From assembly GCA_965237775.1 (NCBI GenBank), contig OZ250155.1, positions 5,057,419 to 5,121,418 on the forward strand: 64,000 bases of DNA, given 5' to 3'. The stretch is from Dehalococcoidia bacterium (GTDB lineage Bacteria > Chloroflexota > Dehalococcoidia > Lucifugimonadales > UBA3495). The first letter of the stretch is position 1; each line of letters begins with the position of its first letter. Shown here one piece after another: positions 19,242 to 51,305 of the stretch. The notes under the pieces were generated by a model. It saw only the letters and a program-made list of their open reading frames with translations, did not search any database and was not told where the DNA came from. The position numbers were made by a program, and so were the translations under genes.

Positions 19242-19412
19242 GGGAGCTATCACGCCCACTAAATTGAAGATGAACATCCTTCTCCTCGGCGTGTTAACGT
19301 GCGCGCTCGTGGCCTGTTAACGTCGGCACCAACAACGACGCCTATCCGCGCCCCGCAGGAGCCCGTCCCGGAGATAGCGGAAGCCCTCCTCTGGGAGGTA
19401 GACAAACACGAC
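19242..19412 (+). mobile_element. Decayed left part of the lipoprotein cassette also found at 45802-46021
   Basis: Begins GGGAGCTATCACGCCCACTAAATTGAAGATGAACATCC; near-identical to 45802-46021 with an internal deletion and a stop. Confidence 0.8.
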
Positions 19413-19564
19413 CTAAACTAAAGCCAAGGTGAAATGTACATATCGCTGACCGCACTGTCGGTGGCCACCCTTTTGGGGCTTAAGGGTGATATGAGGTGCC
19501 GTGGAGTCCTCTCGGTCGTCTTCAAGACACCCGAAATGCACATCCCACCTTGGTATTGGTTTAG
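19413..19564. mobile_element. IS630-end MITE, core type A (152 bp)
   Basis: CTAAACTAAAGCCAAGGTGAAATGTACAT ... ATGCACATCCCACCTTGGTATTGGTTTAG inverted ends. Confidence 0.88.
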
Positions 19565-34783: not shown

Positions 34784-34935
34784 CTAAACTAAGGCCAAGG
34801 TGAAATGTACATATCGCCAGACCACACTGGCGGTGGCCACCCAGTTGGACCTTAAAGGTGATATGAGGTGCTGTGGAGTCTTTTGGTCGTCTTCAAGACC
34901 CCAGAAATGCACATCCCACCTCGGTATTGGTTTAG
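34784..34935. mobile_element. IS630-end MITE, core type A (152 bp)
   Basis: Same ends and core as 19413-19564. Confidence 0.88.
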
Positions 34936-35027
34936 GGTACTGGAGCCTACAAACCTTGTCAGACTAAAAGGGGGACGGGGCAACAGGGTAGCCACGGTGC
35001 CCCGCACGGGACGGACGGGCCACCTTC

Positions 35028-35894
35028 CTACCTAAGCCTTTCTCCGGGTCTGAAGCTGCCGTCTAGCCACTCGACGAAGTTGCCAGCATGAAGGAGGTAC
35101 GTCCGCTTGGTGCTCGCTGTCAGGCCCGAGGTTTCGACCTCCCCGCAGTACCGTGCGAAGGCTCGTCGCACCCCGGCTATGGTCTTCGGAGGAAGCGCAC
35201 GTTTCCGATGTAACGGCCCTTTTGCCCGATCTTCCCGTTGGTCAGTCGCACCGGCGGTTTGCCTCATCTGCTCCTCAATATCTGGAGACCAGAGGTTTCC
35301 CTGCTCCGATCGTTCCTTATTGCGGTACTTCTCTATCCACCGGGCGTCAATTGGTGGCAAATTCGGACGGCGCTCGTAGACCAGCATCTCCTTTACGCTT
35401 AGTAGTTGCATCACCGGGTAAGCCCTGGTCCCGCCGTCTGCATCGTGTAGGTCGACCGTCCCGAGGCCGGTGGCGAACTGCGTCCATTTGCTGGAGGAGG
35501 GATACAGAGTGATCAGGACAGACATCGGGACACGCCCTTTCCGTTTGTCCTCCCTGGTCTGGACGCCCAACAATTCGTCCAGAACGGCTCTACTGACTCC
35601 GGCTTGGTGCATCTTCGCTTGGATTGGGACCATGACGCCACCGACGCCATAGTAACGTGCGTCAATCCCGCCGTCGCCGCCTTTCTTGCCGTTTGGGACA
35701 GCGTCCAACAGGTCAGCTATGTAATCTTCCGCCCAAGCCCAACCGGGTTCTCCGGTGCCTGCCGCTCGTTCTGTTTTGATAGCCTCCCGTTCGAATGCCT
35801 TCCATGCGCGGTCATCGTATTCCTCCAACGCGTCTAACAAGGGGTTCTCCATGGACTTTGCCTCCAAGCGGACCTGTACTCGTTTGAGCATCAC
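35028..35894 (-). CDS. Mrr-like PD-(D/E)XK restriction-endonuclease-domain protein
   Basis: AFEREA...GGDGGIDA...PIQAKM matches the Mrr_cat D-x-G-I-D...Q-x-K signature. Confidence 0.65.
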   Translation of the reverse strand: MMLKRVQVRLEAKSMENPLLDALEEYDDRAWKAFEREAIKTERAAGTGEPGWAWAEDYIADLLDAVPNGKKGGDGGIDARYYGVGGVMVPIQAKMHQAGVSRAVLDELLGVQTREDKRKGRVPMSVLITLYPSSSKWTQFATGLGTVDLHDADGGTRAYPVMQLLSVKEMLVYERRPNLPPIDARWIEKYRNKERSEQGNLWSPDIEEQMRQTAGATDQREDRAKGPLHRKRALPPKTIAGVRRAFARYCGEVETSGLTASTKRTYLLHAGNFVEWLDGSFRPGERLR

Positions 35895-36003
35895 GATGGC
35901 ATCCTATCCAACCGCTTCAAGATGTGATGGAAAGGAAGAGAGTCCCTGCTACCCTGCCCCTGCGGCACACCGGAGTGTGCCTATGGGGATCACCGGGACG
36001 CCA

Positions 36004-36155
36004 CTAAACCAATACCAAGGTGGGATGTGCACTTCGGGGTCTTGAGGACAACCGAAAGGACTCCACAGCTCCTCATATCACCTTTGGGCCCCAATTGGGT
36101 CGCCACTGACAGTGCGGTCCGGTGATATGTACATTTCACCTTGGCTTTAGTTTAG
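36004..36155. mobile_element. IS630-end MITE, core type A in reverse orientation (152 bp)
   Basis: Closely similar to the reverse complement of 19413-19564 and 34784-34935. Confidence 0.88.
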
Positions 36156-41493: not shown

Positions 41494-42579
41494 TGAACCA
41501 AGGCCAGGGAGAAATGTGCGGGGGATAGAGTAATTTGGGGAGGGATTGGGTTAGCCTGCGTTGGGGTTGGAGATGGGTGCGAGAGAGATAGAGCGGTTCC
41601 TCAAACAGTGGCAGATGGATGCAACGGATTTGCGCAGGCGGTTGCTTCTGGCCCGACACCCCGGGAGCGGGAAAGGTGGCACGTCCTCTGGCTCTTGGAC
41701 TAGGGTTGGACCGCCTCGGCGGTGTCCGGGGCACTGGACCGGGACCCCCACACCATCGGCCGGTGGGCCGCCGCCTTCGGCGAAGGTGGTTCGAGGGCTC
41801 TGATTTTCGAGCAGTCCGGAGGTTCCCCACCTTCGCCGGGGCGCAGTAGGCCACACTGAAAGGGTCGGCGCAGGAGTTGCCTGCGGCAGTTGGCATTGAA
41901 CTGGCCAACTGGAAGGTGGGGCGGTAGTTTGTCTCCCAGAGCTTCGGCATCAGCCTGAGCTGCGGCGGTCCGGGACCAAGATTCTCTTCGCTGAGGAGGC
42001 GCACTTCCGGGCGGACGCCGAACTGCGGGGCAAGTGGGTGCTGAAGGGAGAGTCGGCCCTGGTGGATTCGACCAGCCCGTGCGTGGCGGGAAGGCCAGCC
42101 GCTACTCGGCGGTGTGCCTGGAGACAGGAGAGGTGGGATGGATGGAACTGAAGGGGAACAGCAACGCTGAAACCTCCACCGCTTTCCTGAATCAACTGCG
42201 CAGGAAGCACCCCGGATCGTTGGCCGTGATCTGGGACAATGCCTCAGCGCGCCGTCGCGAGGCGGTGCGGGAGTGCCTGAGGACGTCCGGCCGGGGCCTG
42301 CGGCTGATGAATCTGCCGGGCTACAGTCCGGACTTCAATGCCGATGAGACGATCTGGGGCTGAGTGAGGGAGGAGGCGACCGGGAACCTGTGCCTGGGGA
42401 CCAAGTCTCGGGTGCAAGAGAGGGTGGGGAACTTCTTCGCCGCGCTGGCTGGACGGAAAGAAGAGGTCAAACACCGCTGCCGGATCGTCCTGCAATCGTG
42501 GGCTGAAAGAATACTGCGAGACTCCCAGCCCCATCGCCAACCCCAGGCAAATGCACATCCCACCTTGGCTTTGGTTTAG
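41494..42579 (+). mobile_element. IS630-family IS, transposase pseudogene
   Basis: EAHFRADA, VIWDNA and LPGYSPDFNADE.IW motifs; right end ATGCACATCCCACCTTGGCTTTGGTTTAG matches the MITE ends. Confidence 0.88.
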
Positions 42580-42805
42580 TAGACTTCTCCATCCACTGGA
42601 TGCCGCTTTACCCACGTATTCATCTTACGCATCGGCAGAGAGGTCGTTGACATGTAGAGGTTTCATACCATCCCGTTGTGGTTTCACCGGGGCGCGAAAA
42701 ACCTTGAAGTTGCCACCTTCTTCGAGAGAGCTTGTCGGGCTGTGTATAATCCAACCCATACACAAGGTGAGAAATCTTTGGCCTCGTGGCAGACGGGCGG
42801 TTTCC

Positions 42806-44557
42806 ATGAAGTTAATGGTCAGAACCTTGAACTTTCCCATTAAAAGAATCCTATTTGTGGTGGCCATTCCGGTCGCCCTCGCAGCCTTTTACTTGGGGTT
42901 ACCCCCATTAGGATGCGCGGCATTAGTTGGAGGCATGGTTTGTATTCTGCCGTGGGCCTTCATGCGGAGCCTCTACTGGAAGGCGTCACGTCGCTTGCAA
43001 GAGGCCAGGCCCTACTACAAGCGGGGTGACGCCAACCGCTATAAAAGGGAGTATGACCGGGCGATAGTTGAGTACAGCACTGCTATTGGCATTGACCGAG
43101 ACAATTTGCGAGCCTACTGCGCCAGGGGATCCGTCTATATGCTGAAAGGCGAATATGACCTAGCGATCGCCGATTTCGACACTGCCATCAACATTGACCC
43201 CATCCTTCGCGGCCTCGCCTACCGCGAATTTATGGGCCGTGATGCTGGGGAATACGACTTGGCAAATGCCTACAACGACCGAGGCTACGCCTATCATGCC
43301 AAAGGGGAATACGACTTGGCGATTGCTGATTTCGACGCCGCCATTCGCATTAACCATCCCGGTTTTGATAAGGCCGGGACTTACAACAACCGTGGTCTCG
43401 CGTACCATGCCAAAGAGGAATACGACCTGGCGGTTGCCGATTTCAACGCCGCCATCGGCTTGGGCTCCCGCGAGGCGGAGTACTACAACAACCGGGGCCT
43501 CGCCTACTTGGCCAAAGGTGAGTATGACCTTGCAATCGCCGACTTCGACACCGTTATTAGCATTGACCCCAACGGTGTTTTCATGTTGGAGGCCTATGAC
43601 GGCCGACGCAAGGCCTACGAAGCAAAAGGGGATTATAAGTTGGCAGCCAGCGAATTCGAAGCTGGCAACCGCATTATTTGGCGGGACGCCGAAGATGCGG
43701 AGGGAGATGGCGAAGCCGACGAAGCGATAATTTACTACGAGAAGGCCAGCTACTATTACAGTAAGGAAGAGTATGATTTGGCGATTGCGGAATACGACAC
43801 AGCCATTGGCATTGACCCCGACGATGAGGCTGGCTACAACAACCGTGGCCTCGTCTACCTCGCCAAATGTGAGTATGACTTGGCGATTGCCGATTTCGAC
43901 ACCGCCATTGCCATTAACCCCGACATTTGGGTGGCCTACGAGAGCCGGGATATAGCCTACATAGCCAAAGGGGATTCTAACCCGGAAGTGATAGAGGCCT
44001 ATACGAGACGAGGGCTGGCCTACATCACCACAGGGGAGCATGACATGGCTATCGAAGATTTCAACACCGCCATTCGCATTGACCCCGGCCACGTACAGGC
44101 CTATGTCAGCCGGGGCCTCGCCTACTACGCTCAAGGGGAGCATGACTTGGCGATTACCGACTTCGAAGCCGCTGTTAGCACCGATCCCGGGTACGCCCAG
44201 GCCTATATCATCCGTGGCCTCGTCTACATAACCAAGGGGGAGCATGATCTAGCGATCGCCGATTTTGACACTGGCATTGGAATTGACCCCAGCGATGCGG
44301 AGGCTTACAACGACCGAGGCCAAGCCTACAAAGCCAAAGAGAAGTATGACTTGGCTATTGCCGATTACACAGCCGCCATTAGCATCGACTCTAATTTTGC
44401 AGGAGCATACCACAACCGGAGTTTCGCCTACCTCGCCAAAGGAGAGTCCAGCTTGGCGATGGCCGACCACTATGCCGCCATTGCCATCGATCCTAATTTT
44501 GCGGAAGAAGACTATGTCCGGCTGGATATCCCCTACCCGGCTGGAGGACAAGGATGA
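42806..44557 (+). CDS. Membrane-anchored TPR repeat protein
   Basis: Two N-terminal TM helices, then more than 12 repeats of AY.NRG.AY..KGEYDLAIADFD.AI.IDP. The longer ORF start at 42551 lies inside the IS end. Confidence 0.92.
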   Translation: MKLMVRTLNFPIKRILFVVAIPVALAAFYLGLPPLGCAALVGGMVCILPWAFMRSLYWKASRRLQEARPYYKRGDANRYKREYDRAIVEYSTAIGIDRDNLRAYCARGSVYMLKGEYDLAIADFDTAINIDPILRGLAYREFMGRDAGEYDLANAYNDRGYAYHAKGEYDLAIADFDAAIRINHPGFDKAGTYNNRGLAYHAKEEYDLAVADFNAAIGLGSREAEYYNNRGLAYLAKGEYDLAIADFDTVISIDPNGVFMLEAYDGRRKAYEAKGDYKLAASEFEAGNRIIWRDAEDAEGDGEADEAIIYYEKASYYYSKEEYDLAIAEYDTAIGIDPDDEAGYNNRGLVYLAKCEYDLAIADFDTAIAINPDIWVAYESRDIAYIAKGDSNPEVIEAYTRRGLAYITTGEHDMAIEDFNTAIRIDPGHVQAYVSRGLAYYAQGEHDLAITDFEAAVSTDPGYAQAYIIRGLVYITKGEHDLAIADFDTGIGIDPSDAEAYNDRGQAYKAKEKYDLAIADYTAAISIDSNFAGAYHNRSFAYLAKGESSLAMADHYAAIAIDPNFAEEDYVRLDIPYPAGGQG

Positions 44558-44623: not shown

Positions 44624-45121
44624 ATGGAACCTTTTAAACTCCGGCCGTGGAAAATAAGCATTTCGCCAGGCTGCGACGCCCGGTTTTACACATGTGCCCG
44701 GCCAGGCAGGTCCAAAGGGCCAGATGGCGCTGTGCCAGACGACGTCGTTTCCTCTTGGGTCAAAGGGTTGCCTGGTCCCGATACGGCAATTATATCGCTG
44801 TTGGGTCGCAAATCAGACAAAAACGGCCTTTGTGAATACTCCTTCTACTCATTCTGTGGAGCATGGGACCGCCCCGAAGAACCCGGACGTCGACCGTATT
44901 TCCAAGAGTGGCTTGATCAAAATCATAAAGAACTCAAAATTTTGGTACGTGAACGTCCGACCTACGACAACCGCCCAATTCCCTCCGACACGATTAAGGC
45001 CATAGCCACTGACGTACATGAGCTTAATAGAGAGGGCCGGACAGTAGTTGTGATGGACTCTGGCGGCGTGGGTCGTACAGGGGACGTAGTTGCGTATCTC
45101 AGGGCTACACAGGACACTTAG
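44624..45121 (+). CDS. Dual-specificity/tyrosine-phosphatase-fold protein with Asp in place of the catalytic Cys
   Basis: ARPG, IISLLG, P.YD and VVVMDSGGVGRTG, compared with the canonical VVHCxxGxGRTG. Confidence 0.6.
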   Translation: MEPFKLRPWKISISPGCDARFYTCARPGRSKGPDGAVPDDVVSSWVKGLPGPDTAIISLLGRKSDKNGLCEYSFYSFCGAWDRPEEPGRRPYFQEWLDQNHKELKILVRERPTYDNRPIPSDTIKAIATDVHELNREGRTVVVMDSGGVGRTGDVVAYLRATQDT

Positions 45122-46021
45122 CCCGAATCCACCGAAGGAGGGCGTCGGGTCAGCTACCTGAAGCGGCTGGAAGGTGCTCCTGTGCATCTGGGATGATGGT
45201 TTGAAACAGCATACCGGCCCCGAAGCAGGAGCACCCAATAGATGCTGCCACGCAACCACCCCGACCGCATCCAAATCGCCTTCGACGACCACCGCCTGGT
45301 GGCCAACGCCGGCCTGCTCCTTCCAGCCACCTTGGCCCTGCACCTCGGCCTTTCCCAATTGGTACAGCAGCGCCTGGACCTGGGCGATGCGCCGGGCCGG
45401 GCCAACCCCGGCGACAAGATAATGACGCTGGTCGCTTCCGCGCTGGCTGGCGGCGACTGCATCGACGACGCCGATGCGTTGCGCGCTGGCGGGGTGGCCT
45501 GCGCTCTCGGCAGCGTAGTCAAGGCGCCATCCACCCTGGGCACTTTCCTGCGCAGCTTTCGCTGGGGCCACGTCCGCCAACTGGACCGGGTGAGCCGCGA
45601 GTTGCTGGCACGGGCATGGCAGGCCGGAGCCGGACCCGGCGACGCGCCATTTACCATCGACCTCGATTCCACCATCTGCGCGACCTACGGGTTGGCAAAG
45701 GAGGGAGCGCGCCATCATGGTTACACCCGCCAGCGGGGCTATCACCCGCTGCTGGCCGTGGCCGCTGGCACCGGCGACGTGCTGATGGCCCGGCTGCGGG
45801 GGGGAACTATCCCGCCCACTAAATTGAAGATGAACATCCTTTGCCTCGGCGTGTTAGCGTGCGCTCTCGTGGCCTGCTCAACGTCGGGACCAACAACGAC
45901 GCCTATCCGCGCCCTGCAGGAGCCCGTCCCCGAGGCGATGGAAGACATGGTCGGGGAGTGGGTGCGGGAGCACGCTCCGGAGATAGCGGAAGCCCTCCTC
46001 CGGGAGGTAGACAAACACGAC

Positions 46022-46162
46022 CTAAACTAAAGCCAAGGTGAAATGTGCATTTCCGGAATCTGCAGCGACTCGGCAGACCTTCCTCCAATTGCAGGACATA
46101 GATACTACCGGGATACTTGAGTCCCATTTCCCTGTACCCCCCAATATAGATTCCACCTTGGC
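46022..46162. mobile_element. IS630-end MITE, core type C, inner TIR truncated
   Basis: Left end CTAAACTAAAGCCAAGGTGAAATGTGCAT; right end stops after ATATAGATTCCACCTTGGC. Confidence 0.8.
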
Positions 46163-46409
46163 GTTACAATATTATGGACCGGGAGGAGCAGCGGAGACCG
46201 TCTGAGACTGAAGGAGACCAGGACTAGGTCTGCTTCACCCTCATCACCATATCCACCAGGTGCCAATGGTATCCGCGCCGGTTTAACGGGCGGACTGGAC
46301 AGTCCCATCCGCCGCGTAATAGCAGAGCGGGGACCGTAAGTAAACCGCATCTAGCCCGTTTCCGGGGACCTGGAGTTCGTGGGCTCCCAATCTTCATTCC
46401 GAGGAGAAC

Positions 46410-48008
46410 ATGACTCATACGGAGAATGCGACAATGCGGATGCTGAAATGGTTCGCCCCTATCTTTGCCGCCGGAACGTTGACCGTATTCGCCGCTTGCG
46501 CGTCCGCCTCCACCAGCGAACCTGCGCTCGAACCCACGGCGACGCCTGCGGACGATTCGCCGCAGGCGCCGTCCGTTTCAACTGTCATTGGCACGCCCGT
46601 ACCTCGTTCTGATGTCGGGACGGTTTTCGACAGACCCTTGTCCTCCGGTCTGTCCGTTGCCGACGTGACGGAGAACGCGCTGCCCAGCGTGGTCCAAATC
46701 ATCGCGGGTTCCGGCTCCGGGACGGGTTTCATCATCAACGAGAACGGGCTGACGGTCACCAACAGGCACGTAGTCGAAGGGAATAACCGGGTTGCCGTCC
46801 GGCTGGCGACAGGGGAGGAATACCGGGGCAGCGTGACCGAACGGCATCCAAACCTCGATTTGGCCTACGTCGAGATTGACGCCAACCGGCGTTTCACCCC
46901 CATAGCTATTGGCAACTCCGACAAAATCCGCGTTGGCGACGACGTTATCGCCATCGGTTTCCCCTTGGGCCGGTCACTGGGGCTGGAGCCTACGGTCAGC
47001 GTCGGAATCATCTCGGCCAAGCGGAATAACCGCCTGCAAACGGACGCATCCCTGAATCCGGGAAACAGCGGCGGGCCGCTGCTGGATATGTTCGGCCAGG
47101 TCGCCGGAGTGGTTGTCTCCAGGGTGGAAACCAACAAAGCCGGAAGGCCCGTCACCGGCATCGGCTTCGCCATTCCCATCAACGCGGTGAAGTCGGGGCT
47201 TGGGGGGCAGGTTTCCCGGGCCGGCAGGGCGCTGCCCACGCCCACCCTGACGCCCTTCCCGGCGATAGCCCTGCCCCCAAACGTCGAGGCCACCAAGGCT
47301 GCGATGGACGCCATAGACGCCCACCGGCGGCAGGTGGAGCAGGCCACCCGCACGGCCATCGAAGCACAGCAGGAAGCCGAGCGCTACGCCGCCTCCCTGG
47401 AAGCCACCCGCATCGCCGAACTGCCCACACCGACGCCAACGCCGCTGCCGACGGCCACCCCGACGCCGACACCTACGCCCTTGCCCACGGCCACGCCGAC
47501 TCCAACGCCCACGCCAACACCGGAACCCACGCCGACCCCACTACCCACGCCCACACCGCATCCACGCACGTTCTGCCAGGAATGGGAAGCCCTGGCGCTT
47601 GATTGGATAAAGCAGGGCAATAACTATTACAATTCGAATTATCCTCAATCACGTGGAGTGTCCTCAGTTGTACCTGACCACTCCCAGTTGTCTGCTAAGG
47701 AAGCGCACTCGTTGTGTCTTACTGCATTATTCCCGCTCGGCATCATAGAAAATAGAGGTAGTTCGAGCGTCGGAGATGGGCAAGGCCAGCTTCTGCCGGG
47801 CACTTATGAGTACCGGAGGGAGGGAGATAAGCGTGTGCCGGGGAGATGCCAGATCAATCTCAACTGGAACGAGGATAACCAGCAATCCGTAAAGATGCCC
47901 CACGGTGAGCCATTCACTTTCCGGTTCTATCAGTATCATGGGAAGGTTAGCTATGGGGCGGAATACAGGGACCGTTGCGACGGTGCCCTCTACCGCATTG
48001 GGGACTGA
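46410..48008 (+). CDS. Lipoprotein trypsin-like (S1C/HtrA-type, no PDZ) serine protease with PT linker
   Basis: FAAC lipobox; [28 protein letters not shown]; Pro-Thr repeats at about 47420-47560. Confidence 0.9.
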
Positions 48009-48078
48009 TTTGCCTCTAAAGTCGGAATCGTGGCAAGGGAAGGTTTGATACTTCCCTCAATAACAGAGAGATAGATGT

Positions 48079-48291
48079 ATGACGTACAGGGAAATTCAAC
48101 GCAGTGCAGCTCAAAAACTGGGCGTCCAACCATCTTCAGTGAAGACCTGCTGGATAGCGGAGGTAAAGCGCGAGTTTGGGCTTACACAAGGGAGGGCGCC
48201 AAAAGCCGGCCAAGGCCGAGGCGCCCCACCATGCCCGCCTCGTTATCGTGATGCGATTACACAGTGCATCCGTGCCCGCTCTTTAAAATAG
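48079..48291 (+). CDS. Small basic hypothetical protein
   Basis: TYREIQ...KTCWIAEVKREFGL...PCPP...AI; resembles a small domain seen at some RlmD C-termini (recalled, unverified). Confidence 0.6.
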   Translation: MTYREIQRSAAQKLGVQPSSVKTCWIAEVKREFGLTQGRAPKAGQGRGAPPCPPRYRDAITQCIRARSLK

Positions 48292-48299
48292 ACGTTACC

Positions 48300-48395
48300 G
48301 TTGGGCATAAGGGAGATGAAGCGGTTCCTCGAACAGTTGCAATTGGATGCGGGCGATGTAAGGAGGCGGATTCATCTGGCTCCTACACCGCTTGG
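48300..48395 (+). pseudogene. IS630 transposase N-terminal fragment
   Basis: Similar to 41575-41660 (RE..RFL.Q.Q.DA.D.RRR..LA). Confidence 0.55.
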
Positions 48396-48552
48396 GCTTT
48401 GTCCTGAAGCGGCCCAGGAAACGGTTGGCTTGGCCGGTTCAGCGACTTGGAGCGCGTAGGGCGGTCCGGACTGTTAAGCTCCAATCATGTTGATGAAACG
48501 TATGCCCCGGACTTCCTGGAGACTCTCAGACGACTGGTAGACCGGATGAGGT

Positions 48553-49236
48553 ATGAGGATTGTGAACGACAGCCCGATAGTTGTCATCCAATGCGCCGGC
48601 AGCAAGCAGAGCCATGCCGGTTGCCTTGGCCTTCGCAGCAGTGGGGAAGTGCTGTTCGTCTCCGACCCGGATAAAGCTCCCCAAGACGAATATACCTATG
48701 CTCATCCCGACGGCCAAGCGGACATTGGGGAGACGTGGCGGGAGAAGTTGTGGCGATACAATAAACGGCATAAGGACGCTCCAGGAGACAACCCTTTGGG
48801 GCTGCTGCCCGCCTGGCAGCTTTACAGGCATCCGATCTATGCCCGACTGGCGGAAAAGTACGGGCCGGAGCACCTCTACATCCTGTCGGCTGGCTGGGGC
48901 CTGATTAGGGCAGGTTTTCTGACGCCGGACTATGACATTACCTTCAGCAACAATGCAGAACCCTACAATCGCAGGCGCGAACGGGATGCTTACGACGATT
49001 GGCGTATGCTGCCTGACGACACTGCCGAGCCGGTCGTATTCTTCGGCGGCAAAAGCTATATAAAGCTGTTTTGTGCATTGACCGAACGGGTGAAAGGGCC
49101 GAGGCACGTATTCTTTAATTCACGGAATGCGCCGGATGCACCAGGTTGCCATCTCCGAAAGTTCGACACCAGAACCAGAACCAACTGGCACTATGAATGC
49201 GCCCGAGCATTTATGGACGGGAAGGTCAAGATTTAG
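48553..49236 (+). CDS. DUF6884/YaaA-like hypothetical protein
   Basis: VIQCAGSK, PAWQLY and ILSAGWGLI...YD.TF pattern. Confidence 0.6.
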   Translation: MRIVNDSPIVVIQCAGSKQSHAGCLGLRSSGEVLFVSDPDKAPQDEYTYAHPDGQADIGETWREKLWRYNKRHKDAPGDNPLGLLPAWQLYRHPIYARLAEKYGPEHLYILSAGWGLIRAGFLTPDYDITFSNNAEPYNRRRERDAYDDWRMLPDDTAEPVVFFGGKSYIKLFCALTERVKGPRHVFFNSRNAPDAPGCHLRKFDTRTRTNWHYECARAFMDGKVKI

Positions 49237-49244
49237 AAACAATG

Positions 49245-49460
49245 TCAAAATAGTAACCGGTGCTGACGACGATACCAGAGATGGGAGTACGCCAAGTGGA
49301 TCAGCCCCTTGTAGTTGGATACCTCTTTGTCATAGCGGACCAGGGTCGCCCGGTGCTTGGACAGCCAGGCCAACGTGCGTTCCACCACCCAGCGACGGGC
49401 CGGAAAGATGAGGTGAAGCGGCGCTGCCGGACCGTCCTGCAATCAAAGCCGAAGGGCCAG
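49245..49460. pseudogene. IS5-family C-terminal fragment (minus) joined to an IS630 C-terminal fragment (plus)
   Basis: RRWVVERTLAWL...LVRYDK on the minus strand; RKDEVKRRCRTVLQS on the plus strand matches 42455-42500. Confidence 0.7.
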
Positions 49461-49584
49461 TAGTCCGAAAACTCCGAAATGATGAGTAACCGAGTTGGAT
49501 ATGACTTGCCGAAACACCTTGGCTGGTGGTCTTCACGGGTCAAAAACCAGCCCATTCACCCATCAATACAAAGGCGTTGGTCTA

Positions 49585-49735
49585 CTAAACCAAAGCCAAG
49601 GTGAAATACGCATATGGAGAAAGTCATCGGCGGCGCCGGACCACCTCCAAGTGCAGGTGGAAGAGCTTCACCGTGCGCGCCTGAGCCAATCTTCATCGCC
49701 CCGCAAATGTAGATTCCACCTTGGCTTTAGTTTAG
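49585..49735. mobile_element. IS630-end MITE, core type B (151 bp)
   Basis: Same ends; core shares GGAAGAGCTTCAC and GCCAATCTTCATCGCCCC with 33772-33924. Confidence 0.88.
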
Positions 49736-51305
49736 GTGCCAAGTTGTCGGGAAACGAGAGCCTAACCGAGAAGGTCGCGGCTGCCTTGGTCGTGGGTGCC
49801 ACCATCCGGGCTGAGGGCGGGGTGTCCACCACCATTGGCTGGGACGTTGATGTGGGCAACGAGTTGGGAACCGTATTCTACGGAACATTACCTGTGGTGA
49901 TGAGGGTGGCCGAGGCCAAGATCGACGCTGAACCGTACTATGACGGAGCCATGCTTTGCATTCGCGACGCGACAGATGGGTGGGTTAGGGAGAAGTGTTC
50001 GGATGGGTAGCTCCTCCGTCTCGCTTCCCAATGGTCCTGCAGGACCATTGGGAGTTTAGCGGGTGGGATAGTTCCCGGCTGCGCGAGGGCCGCGCCAACA
50101 CCGCTCGGGGCGCCGCCCACTTCCTGTGGGAGACCGTGGGGCGGGTGCGCCATGCCGGGGCCAAGGGGCAACTCACGGTGCGGACCGACAGCGGCTTCTA
50201 CACCCACGCCGTGGTTGCCGTCTGTCGCAAGACGAAGGTCCGCTTCTCCATCACCATCCGCCAGCGTGCCAGCCTGCGCAATCTCATTGAAGCCATACCC
50301 GAGGCGGACTGGACGCCCATCCCTTACTGGATGGACGGTGCCGCCGACGTGGCCGAGACCGCTTACACTCCCTTCAGGAGCAAGCCCGATGCCGCGCCGG
50401 TGCGGCTCATCGTCCGGCGGGTGAAGCCCACGCCCGGTTCCCAGCTGGCCCTCTTCGCCAGCTACAGCTATCACGGCTTCATCACCGACCGGGACGGGGA
50501 TACCCTGGAGCTGGAGGCCGACCATCGCCGCCACGCCGAGGTCGAAAATGCCATCCGAGACCTCAAGTACGGCGTGGGACTCAATCATCTCCCGTCAGGC
50601 CGTTTCGCCGCCAACGCCGCCTGGCTGGCCGTCCAGGCGCTGGCGCATAACCTGGCCCGCTGGACGGCGCGGCTCGGCCTGGGTGAACGGATCGTGACCA
50701 CCAAGACGCTCCGGCGGCGGTTCTTCTCCCTGGCCGGACGGCTCACCCGCTCGGCACGCCGTCTCACCTTGCACCTTCCGCAAAGCTGGCCCTGGGAAAC
50801 CCAGTTCTACAGCGCCCTGGCCCGATTGCGCGCCCTCCCCCTCCCTTCCTTCCTGACGGCGTGGTCGGCAGCCGGCCCGCCTCGGACCTCATCCTCACCC
50901 GCCAGCCAATCAAACGTCTCCCCAACTCGTGCCAGATGGGCCAGCGAGAGTTTCCCGCTGCCTTCGGTCTCTCCATGAGCAGCGCCCCACGGCCACCGCC
51001 GGCAGCCACTGGCCCAGCCTGCCTCAAATCCGCCCGGACGATCGCGGCTCCATGCCCCTCACGTCCCATTCCACTGCCCCCACAACGCCGCTCGGTGGAT
51101 TCGGGCTAAGGCTGTAGACAATATAGGTTCTCGAAAGGCCAATCTTCGAGTAGAATCCGATAGCATCCATAGACGGAGCAACCACCGAAATCCGTTTCTA
51201 CCTTCGTTGACCAGTCAACAGCCAGAAACTAAAATCCTGTATGACTCGACTGGCCCAGGAACGGTAGAAGCTGCAACCCCTCGACCGCGAGAATGAGTTT
51301 AGATA

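Follow-up and report, generated by a model that had tools for sequence, protein, structure and literature searches.

A probable composite transposon bounded by two different IS630-type miniature elements splits a lipoprotein gene in a Dehalococcoidia genome

A 64,000-nt stretch of the chromosome of a Dehalococcoidia bacterium (GenBank assembly GCA_965237775.1, contig OZ250155.1, positions 5,057,419 to 5,121,418; hereafter the window) carries a lipoprotein gene that is cut in two by a 3708-bp insert at window positions 46025-49732. [quoted passage not shown] In the mechanism that we propose, the left end of the unit is the outer repeat of MITE C and the right end is the outer repeat of the different, 145-bp MITE B. 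An IS630-family transposase encoded at another place in the genome would bind both outer ends and move everything between them in one event; insertion into the TA of the sole CTAG of the lipoprotein gene would then duplicate the TA and split the gene. The genome holding the window (G000, a single 5.1-Mb contig, C1) was compared with 60 relatives, of which six are congeners (G001-G006, giving seven genomes of the genus) and 54 are more distant. Feature coordinates are collected in Table 1.

Both junctions can be read directly. On the left, the gene runs ...CACGACC-TA and the element follows from 46025 as AACTAAAGCCAAGGTG...; over a longer stretch the reading is ...GACAAACACGACC-TA, then AACTAAAGCCAAGGTGAAATGTGC... 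On the right, the element closes with ...CACCTTGGCTTTAGTT at its last base, 49732, and is followed by TA-GGTGCCAAG... (longer reading ...CCACCTTGGCTTTAGTT, then TA-GGTGCCAAGTTG). A preliminary description of this stretch had proposed that taking out the insert with one TA rejoins the gene halves in frame, through H-D-L-G-A-K, at a CTAG. Indeed, when 46025-49734 (the 3708-bp element and one TA) is removed by script and 45830-46024 is joined to 49735-50010, the result is a 471-nt open reading frame (ORF) that encodes 156 aa, is free of internal stop codons and reads EVDKHDLGAKLSGN (...KHDLGAK...) across the junction.

The uninterrupted allele predicted at the same time exists in relatives. A search with the C-terminal half of the split gene found three uninterrupted genes in two of the 60 relatives, both of them among the six congeners (two genes in G002, one in G005), and no match in the 54 more distant genomes. 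Each of the three places has an ORF of 158-166 aa that spans both halves, which confirms that these belong to a single protein. In DNA alignment the congener alleles read ...CACGACCTAGGTGCC..., with a single CTAG precisely where the window has TA-insert-TA. The rejoined ORF is identical to the three intact alleles at 468/471 (G002_C7), 465/471 and 461/471 nt, which is far stronger evidence than a flanking TA pair, for which chance alone gives 1/16. The corresponding differences (3 aa/3 nt, 5/6 and 6/10) mostly change the amino acid, and the ORF may therefore not be under purifying selection.

The polarity of this comparison could in principle be reversed, with the occupied state being the older one and the intact congener alleles resulting from precise excision; the unit would still move as a whole. 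We regard this as very improbable. It is true that the empty and occupied forms differ solely by the unit and one TA, and that cut-and-paste elements do excise (PMC2170065 mentions excision). However, two species hold three independent intact copies, of which one has different genomic surroundings, and all have a clean CTAG with no footprint. Only the intact ORF makes a complete lipoprotein, and the unit is absent from the relatives. That the occupied copy is nested among empty ones is also suggested by its 468/471 identity to G002_C7.

The empty site is also bridged by Logan contigs of the public runs X9, X10 and X12 (two studies), which join 46022 to 49733 with 44 nt on the shorter side. In X10, two such contigs make up all of the depth over 49761-49967; contigs drop rare variants, and this depth is no proof that the occupied right junction is absent. 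The source sample may be one of these three runs. Sponge-labelled metagenome runs contain only 0.08-0.10 of the words and provide no evidence of habitat. Short-read contigs also bear on the suspicion that the occupied locus is an assembly artefact, in which a MITE-interrupted lipoprotein locus was joined to an unrelated MITE-flanked locus through shared repeats. The end repeats occur dozens of times in the genome, none among the short-read contigs listed bridges the left junction, and one contig starts exactly at 46023. Such a join is nevertheless hardly credible: the shared repeat is only about 30 nt long, 22 IS630-sized and about 45 IS1380-like copies are resolved in the single 5.1-Mb contig, implying that the reads were far longer than the MITEs, and contigs covering the cargo show 0 differences in three runs.

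The two ends of the insert match each other and a transposon family resident in the genome. They form a 37-nt inverted repeat (89% complementary), with an end of the left inverted repeat (IRL) type, GGTGAAAT, on the left and one of the right inverted repeat (IRR) type, GGTGGAAT, on the right. These intact outer ends bracket the cargo in inverted orientation, and a single TA duplication flanks the whole unit. In the full IS630 elements the two ends differ, one reading GGTGAAAT and the other GGTGGGAT. The terminal inverted repeats (TIRs) of both MITEs match the IS630-family elements of the same genome. MITEs B and C are directly oriented, share ends of about 30 nt and are about 70% identical overall. 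In line with the earlier statement, two different MITEs close the insert, with B complete and C damaged at its inner tip. MITE B has 97% identical copies in G000 at 3732970 and 5050027 and many in congeners; five copies of at least 110 nt occur in G000. MITE C is collinear with MITEs B and D in alignment. Its inner tip reads GTTACAA, not TTTAGTT, and its match stops, and homology to a paralogous protease locus of the same genome (P2) starts, within the GGC at 46160-46162.

G000 holds 113 ends of the type (C)TA-AAC[CT]AAAGCCAAGGTG, and CTA precedes 109 of them; the family thus inserts nearly always at CTAG. These ends form 44 adjacent plus/minus pairs: 20 span 145-147 bp (MITEs), 22 span 1230-1493 bp and two are spurious long pairs. 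The elements of insertion sequence (IS) size belong to the IS630 family, with a 389-aa ORF that matches DDE_3 (2e-21) and HTH_33 (5e-13) and, upstream in another frame, a 98-aa HTH_23 ORF. Five 1236-bp copies are 99.7-100% identical to each other, which suggests recent activity. A putative cognate source of transposase is accordingly at hand in the genome, in trans only. Going by the title of a 1991 study by Tenzen and Ohtsubo alone, an IS630-associated composite transposon reportedly prefers the TA in CTAG. Among the equal-composition palindromic tetramers counted in G000, none is rarer than CTAG (5537 occurrences versus 18301 expected from base composition).

The composite itself may have been assembled at a chromosomal protease locus. 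The cargo would be a piece of chromosome with IS630-type insertions collected on both sides. MITE C most likely entered the CTAG just upstream of a P2-like protease locus and then lost its inner tip; a 12-nt deletion across the GGC microhomology would be the simplest history, with a same-length substitution as the alternative. In P2 a CTAG lies at the very point where cargo and MITE C meet, which fits this origin. It is plausible that the damaged inner end of MITE C promoted composite movement, as the preliminary description suggested; the idea matches the model put forward for the composite transposon Tn630-NC1, in which the outer repeats work as a pair because the inner ones have degenerated (PMC11544213). 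Such damage is not necessary, because a second MITE-bounded unit in the window has both inner ends intact.

This second unit (34787-36152) is an independent argument for the mechanism but not for the 3.7-kb unit as such. In G005 the flanks of the unit abut at a single CTAG, ...CCGTCCTTCTAGCTATGG... (L108, around 1501), and the window reads TTC-TA, unit, TA-GTTGTGG, so that the empty sites of both units read CTAG. The flanks of G005 and the window are 88% identical over 810 nt on the left and 83% over 182 nt on the right. The Mrr_cat-like ORF inside the unit is full-length in none of the other six genus genomes. Either whole-unit transposition or precise excision in G005 can explain the structure, whereas single-crossover integration of a circle into a resident MITE is excluded because the two MITEs are inverted. 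The proposal of the preliminary description that MITE pairs mobilize cargo in trans thus gains support from the matching ends, the coding IS630 copies and the G005 empty site.

Several observations weigh against transposition of the 3.7-kb unit as a whole. The unit has no second copy in G000 or the six congeners, and an exact 27-nt pattern across the junction of MITE C and the cargo found no match in metagenome contigs, among which records close to this genome may be missing. The expectation that the same unit would recur at other CTAG sites was therefore disappointed and, since it was found nowhere else, its movement as a whole is something that we infer. A cut-and-paste family would be expected to leave just one copy. 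Neither a donor site nor a footprint was detected, and the protease paralogs in G000 (at 2.80, 2.86 and 2.25 Mb) are just 87-90% identical to the cargo; the source is therefore not in this genome. The empty-site contigs carry variants of the G002 and G005 alleles (for example 49972 A>G) and may come from other strains or co-occurring relatives. We therefore count them as presence of the empty allele and not as excision in this strain. The interior of MITE C occurs once in the seven genus genomes, solely in the window, so that its shape and ends qualify MITE C as a MITE and its copy number does not. A frameshift is needed between the HTH and DDE ORFs of the IS630 copies, whose transposase activity is predicted only. 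Finally, a decayed second left part of the lipoprotein element holds, at the same TA (19416), a simple MITE whose first 29 nt differ from those of MITE C by one base, and this leaves room for a history in which a resident MITE came first.

In such a history a MITE would have entered the lipoprotein CTAG, and the cargo would have arrived later by RecA-type recombination with MITEs flanking it, through an excised circle that integrated or through double crossover or gene conversion. The final structure is the same, and the end product cannot be told from that of transposition by structure alone; the direct orientation of MITEs C and B is what circle integration would give. At the decayed copy the MITE has the same orientation as the insert and is followed by unrelated DNA, and the absence of the 3' half shows that MITE-adjacent rearrangements do occur here. 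The author of PMC3934969 also leaves the choice between transposition and homologous recombination open for MITE-flanked integrons. We nevertheless consider recombination unlikely. MITEs C and B, with the limited identity given above, are a poor substrate for homologous recombination, and MITE B is not a visible hybrid, since it matches other B copies at 97% identity from end to end. The intact lipoprotein element contains exactly one CTAG, so that any IS630-type hit must land there and reuse of the site is to be expected; the shared orientation of the two hits is then only a coincidence, with a probability of one half. The occupied copy has flanks that match the empty alleles at 99.4% identity and are nearer to them than to the decayed copy (92-98%), and the two hits are best read as independent. 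The flanks of 19242-19561 had no match in five congeners in a search for the orthologous locus. Recombination also needs more steps, and the inverted MITEs of the second unit are not a product of single-crossover integration. Taken with the exact TA duplication and the empty alleles, these points lead us to prefer transposition of the composite from its two outer ends.

Units of this kind are not common in G000, since its 34 MITE copies of at least 110 nt form only six neighbour pairs within 12 kb, four of them in the window. Two further segments of the chromosome have outward-facing IS630-type ends and CTA/TAG flanks. C1 2813075-2815140 (2066 bp) holds a 439-aa ORF and had no orthologous flanks in five congeners; C1 2849665-2852596 (2932 bp) holds IS630 N-terminal remnants and a 675-aa ORF. 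A candidate at 148291-154970 is swamped by IS repeats and cannot be scored. A 7.9-kb duplication (C1 5048423-5056318 and 3731366-3739261, 99.95% identical) has its first-named copy ending about 1.1 kb upstream of the window. One of the duplicates begins immediately after an IS630 end, and within the duplicated stretch lie a copy of MITE B and a solo IS630-type end. It was rejected as a case of composite movement, its own boundaries not being IS630 ends.

The gene content of the insert largely agrees with the preliminary description: an S1C-type protease domain, a 70-aa ORF and a DUF6884-like gene are present and an intact transposase is absent, whereas no PDZ domain was found in the 532-aa protease (Pfam, E ≤ 0.01). 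Our analysis adds transposase remnants (IS5-type and an IS630 3' end) within the insert and nested layers around it. The protease matches Trypsin_2 (1.6e-31), has the GNSGGP motif in its translation and continues into a Pro/Thr-rich linker and a Cys-containing C-terminal region. NCBIfam models for Do/HtrA match residues of about 100-262 only and score far below their cut-offs, and the predicted protein is best described as HtrA-like in the protease domain only. Loci of this protease family lie at C1 2803072-2806335 (paralog P1), 2864873-2866635 and 2247588-2249292, some with the 70-aa ORF. That ORF has no match in Pfam, NCBIfam or PADLOC and a weak one to phrog_27283 in PHROG (7.4e-4), and it is kept beside the protease in P1, G001 and G005. 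The DUF6884 score of the third gene (27.0 bits) is below the Pfam gathering cut-off of 30, which makes 'DUF6884-like' the right wording; weak matches to DpdC and PDC-M57A were also found. Metagenome contigs hold 213 relatives of this ORF, the best at 64% identity, and none is near enough to be the donor.

The right part of the cargo has a history of its own. Paralog P1 (about 89% identical) shares the cargo through the junction of the IS5-type and IS630-type remnants, which therefore predates the split of the two copies, and P1 keeps a good IS630 TIR at the place matching the degenerate repeat of the insert. Positions 49399-49456 match the 3' ends of about 25 IS630 copies, and a spacer of about 50 nt separates the IS630 remnant from MITE B. 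The closest congener copy of the protease cluster, in G001 (L006, 85% identical), lies between direct repeats of about 300 bp. Its flanks map to G000 2451084-2453066, where the cluster is missing (the corresponding gap is 2452300-2452580). The G001 copy has no MITEs beside it and G000 shows no footprint, and this locus is uninformative as a clue to the donor.

The insert lies at the centre of a nest three layers deep, which the preliminary description missed. The outermost layer belongs to the IS1380 family: its DDE_Tnp_1_4 transposase lies within 37-nt TIRs and is split into halves (45242-45805 and 50073-50975) that match profile positions 6-190 and 186-434 of 435. About 45 copies of a related IS1380-like element occur in G000, and protease paralogs in G005 and G006 are flanked by IS1380-like copies. 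The middle layer is the small TIR element that carries the lipoprotein ORF. Intact 566-bp copies are present in G002 (two) and G005 (one), at L002 about 1440-2005, L004 1272-1837 and L003 about 1440-2010. Around the G005 copy GATGATT is duplicated (7 bp), and IS1380-borne copies have the duplication GGCTGCG plus 2-3 extra G. Three of the four full copies (the window and both in G002) sit at the identical spot in an IS1380-type transposase gene. A search of G000 for a partner element with the same 22-nt TIRs found only about seven weak matches (4-5 mismatches in 22), close to a rough, hand-estimated chance level of a few. Just upstream of the nested region, at 42551-44557, lies a 668-aa ORF made up largely of TPR-like repeats (recurring EYDLAIADFD).

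Table 1. Features of the window discussed in the text (window coordinates)
Feature	Position	Strand	Description or evidence
Lipoprotein gene, 5' half	45830..46024	+	Signal peptide, lipobox ...LVAC; ends ...KHDL; collinear with intact genes in L002, L003, L004
Left TA copy of duplicated CTAG target	46023..46024		Sequence read and alignment with empty alleles
MITE C	46025..46162	+	145-bp-class, IS630-type; outer IRL-type end intact; inner end without consensus last 7 nt
Cargo gene 1, 532-aa predicted lipoprotein	46410..48008	+	HtrA-like (S1C-type) trypsin-fold protease domain
Cargo gene 2, 70-aa ORF	48079..48291	+	No family
Cargo gene 3, 227-aa DUF6884-like ORF	48553..49236	+	DUF6884, 5.6e-6
IS5-type transposase remnant, C-terminal 65 aa	49245..49442	-	DDE_Tnp_1_2, 9.9e-4, profile positions 42-83 of 86
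IS630-type 3' end remnant, degenerate right repeat	about 49399..49535	+	Degenerate TIR core at 49515
MITE B	49588..49732	+	Complete 145-bp IS630-type; its IRR-type end is the right end of the composite
Right TA copy of duplicated CTAG target	49733..49734		Sequence read and alignment with empty alleles
Lipoprotein gene, 3' half	49735..50010	+	Sequence read, relatives search, rejoined ORF
Middle layer, small TIR element with lipoprotein ORF	45802..50076	+	22-nt TIRs 45802-45823 and 50055-50076; 566 bp when intact
Outermost layer, IS1380-family insertion sequence	45117..51110	+	37-nt TIRs 45117-45153 and 51074-51110; transposase gene split
Second MITE-bounded unit	34787..36152		1366 bp, at CTAG with TA duplication
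MITE A of second unit	34787..34933		Complete, 147 bp
Mrr_cat-like 288-aa ORF	35028..35894	-	Mrr_cat 20.7 bits against cut-off 21; in 1.07-kb interior
Inverted MITE A of second unit	36007..36152		Same subfamily, opposite orientation
Decayed second left part of lipoprotein element	19242..19415	+	42-bp deletion, one stop; 92-98% identical
Different MITE in decayed copy	19416..19561	+	146 bp, at the same TA; no 3' half after it

The 3708-bp unit is a cleanly delimited non-autonomous composite of a known general kind, flanked by MITEs, in a family with scarce natural examples. In Acinetobacter, pairs of identical 439-bp MITEs surround class 1 integrons (PMC3934969) and a MITE-297 pair surrounds a 76-kb mer region (PMC6382973). 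These papers describe the same arrangement, in which a transposase-less pair brackets cargo, target repeats flank the unit in an interrupted ORF and mobilization in trans is proposed. However, each Acinetobacter pair is made up of two identical MITEs, which belong to another family; the duplication is 5 bp long, and the resistance cargo is carried on plasmids. In the present unit the two MITEs are of IS630 type, differ from each other (about 70% identity) and flank chromosomal housekeeping-type cargo; the TA of a CTAG is duplicated and the uninterrupted allele is in hand. Tn6645 was ruled out as a MITE-bounded comparator, being bounded by ISAba3 according to its paper. Mobilization of bracketed DNA by non-autonomous miniature elements has been demonstrated with trap plasmids for Tn3-type TIMEs, whose units, like the present one, resemble IS-driven composite transposons (PMC4133298; PMC13367494). 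As described in those papers, TIMEs belong to the Tn3 family and have 38-bp repeats, 5-6-bp duplications and AT-rich targets. The present units belong to the IS630/Tc1-mariner superfamily, and for them mobility is concluded from comparative evidence only.

Within the IS630 family, ISY100 shows that TA is the sole target of IS630/Tc1 elements and is duplicated on insertion, and that transposase alone suffices in vitro (PMC2170065). The features noted in that work (TA target and duplication, TIRs bound by an N-terminal HTH domain, a DDE catalytic domain) are those seen or predicted here, as is the preference for CTAG that the title of the 1991 study reports for an IS630 composite, whereas the systems studied there are autonomous elements or engineered mini-transposons. 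Closest to our unit is Tn630-NC1 of Nitrosomonas communis, reported in 2024 as the first natural IS630-bounded composite transposon (PMC11544213). It also has IS630-family ends and brackets four passenger genes with TA-containing flanks. Its brackets are two full 888-bp IS630 copies, described as degenerate and inactive, and the passages of the report that bear on it mention no empty site. In the present case the brackets are 145-bp MITEs, the transposase would come from elsewhere and empty sites are available for two units. The open-access literature searched turned up no bacterial composite bounded by IS630-type MITEs.

MITEs are usually regarded as inert passengers or local regulators. Our data tip the balance slightly towards the broader idea that MITEs of the IS630/Tc1-mariner type are a general gene-shuffling device in this IS-rich lineage, in which any two of them, in either orientation and from different subfamilies, can act together with transposase supplied in trans. 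If this is true, MITEs move kilobase-sized chromosomal segments, with protease, restriction-endonuclease-like and DUF6884-like genes, into rare CTAG sites, and the window holds the first natural case, verified by empty sites, in which a MITE-bounded composite of the bacterial IS630/Tc1-mariner superfamily transposed, found twice within 15 kb and in a nest of three layers. Few clean examples are available of an inserted gene block that is demonstrably bracketed by a MITE pair and whose intact target survives in a sister species, and most of them are from resistance plasmids and the Tn3 family. The two units described here, with exact TA/CTAG signatures and empty sites, are a testable substrate for long IS630-type composites with heterologous ends, and the same substrate bears on whether an impaired inner end shifts which ends are used. 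Composite movement of this kind would provide a route by which accessory genes spread within genomes that have very few CTAG sites, and tiny transposase-less relics of IS630 type would be able to carry passenger genes around this genome.

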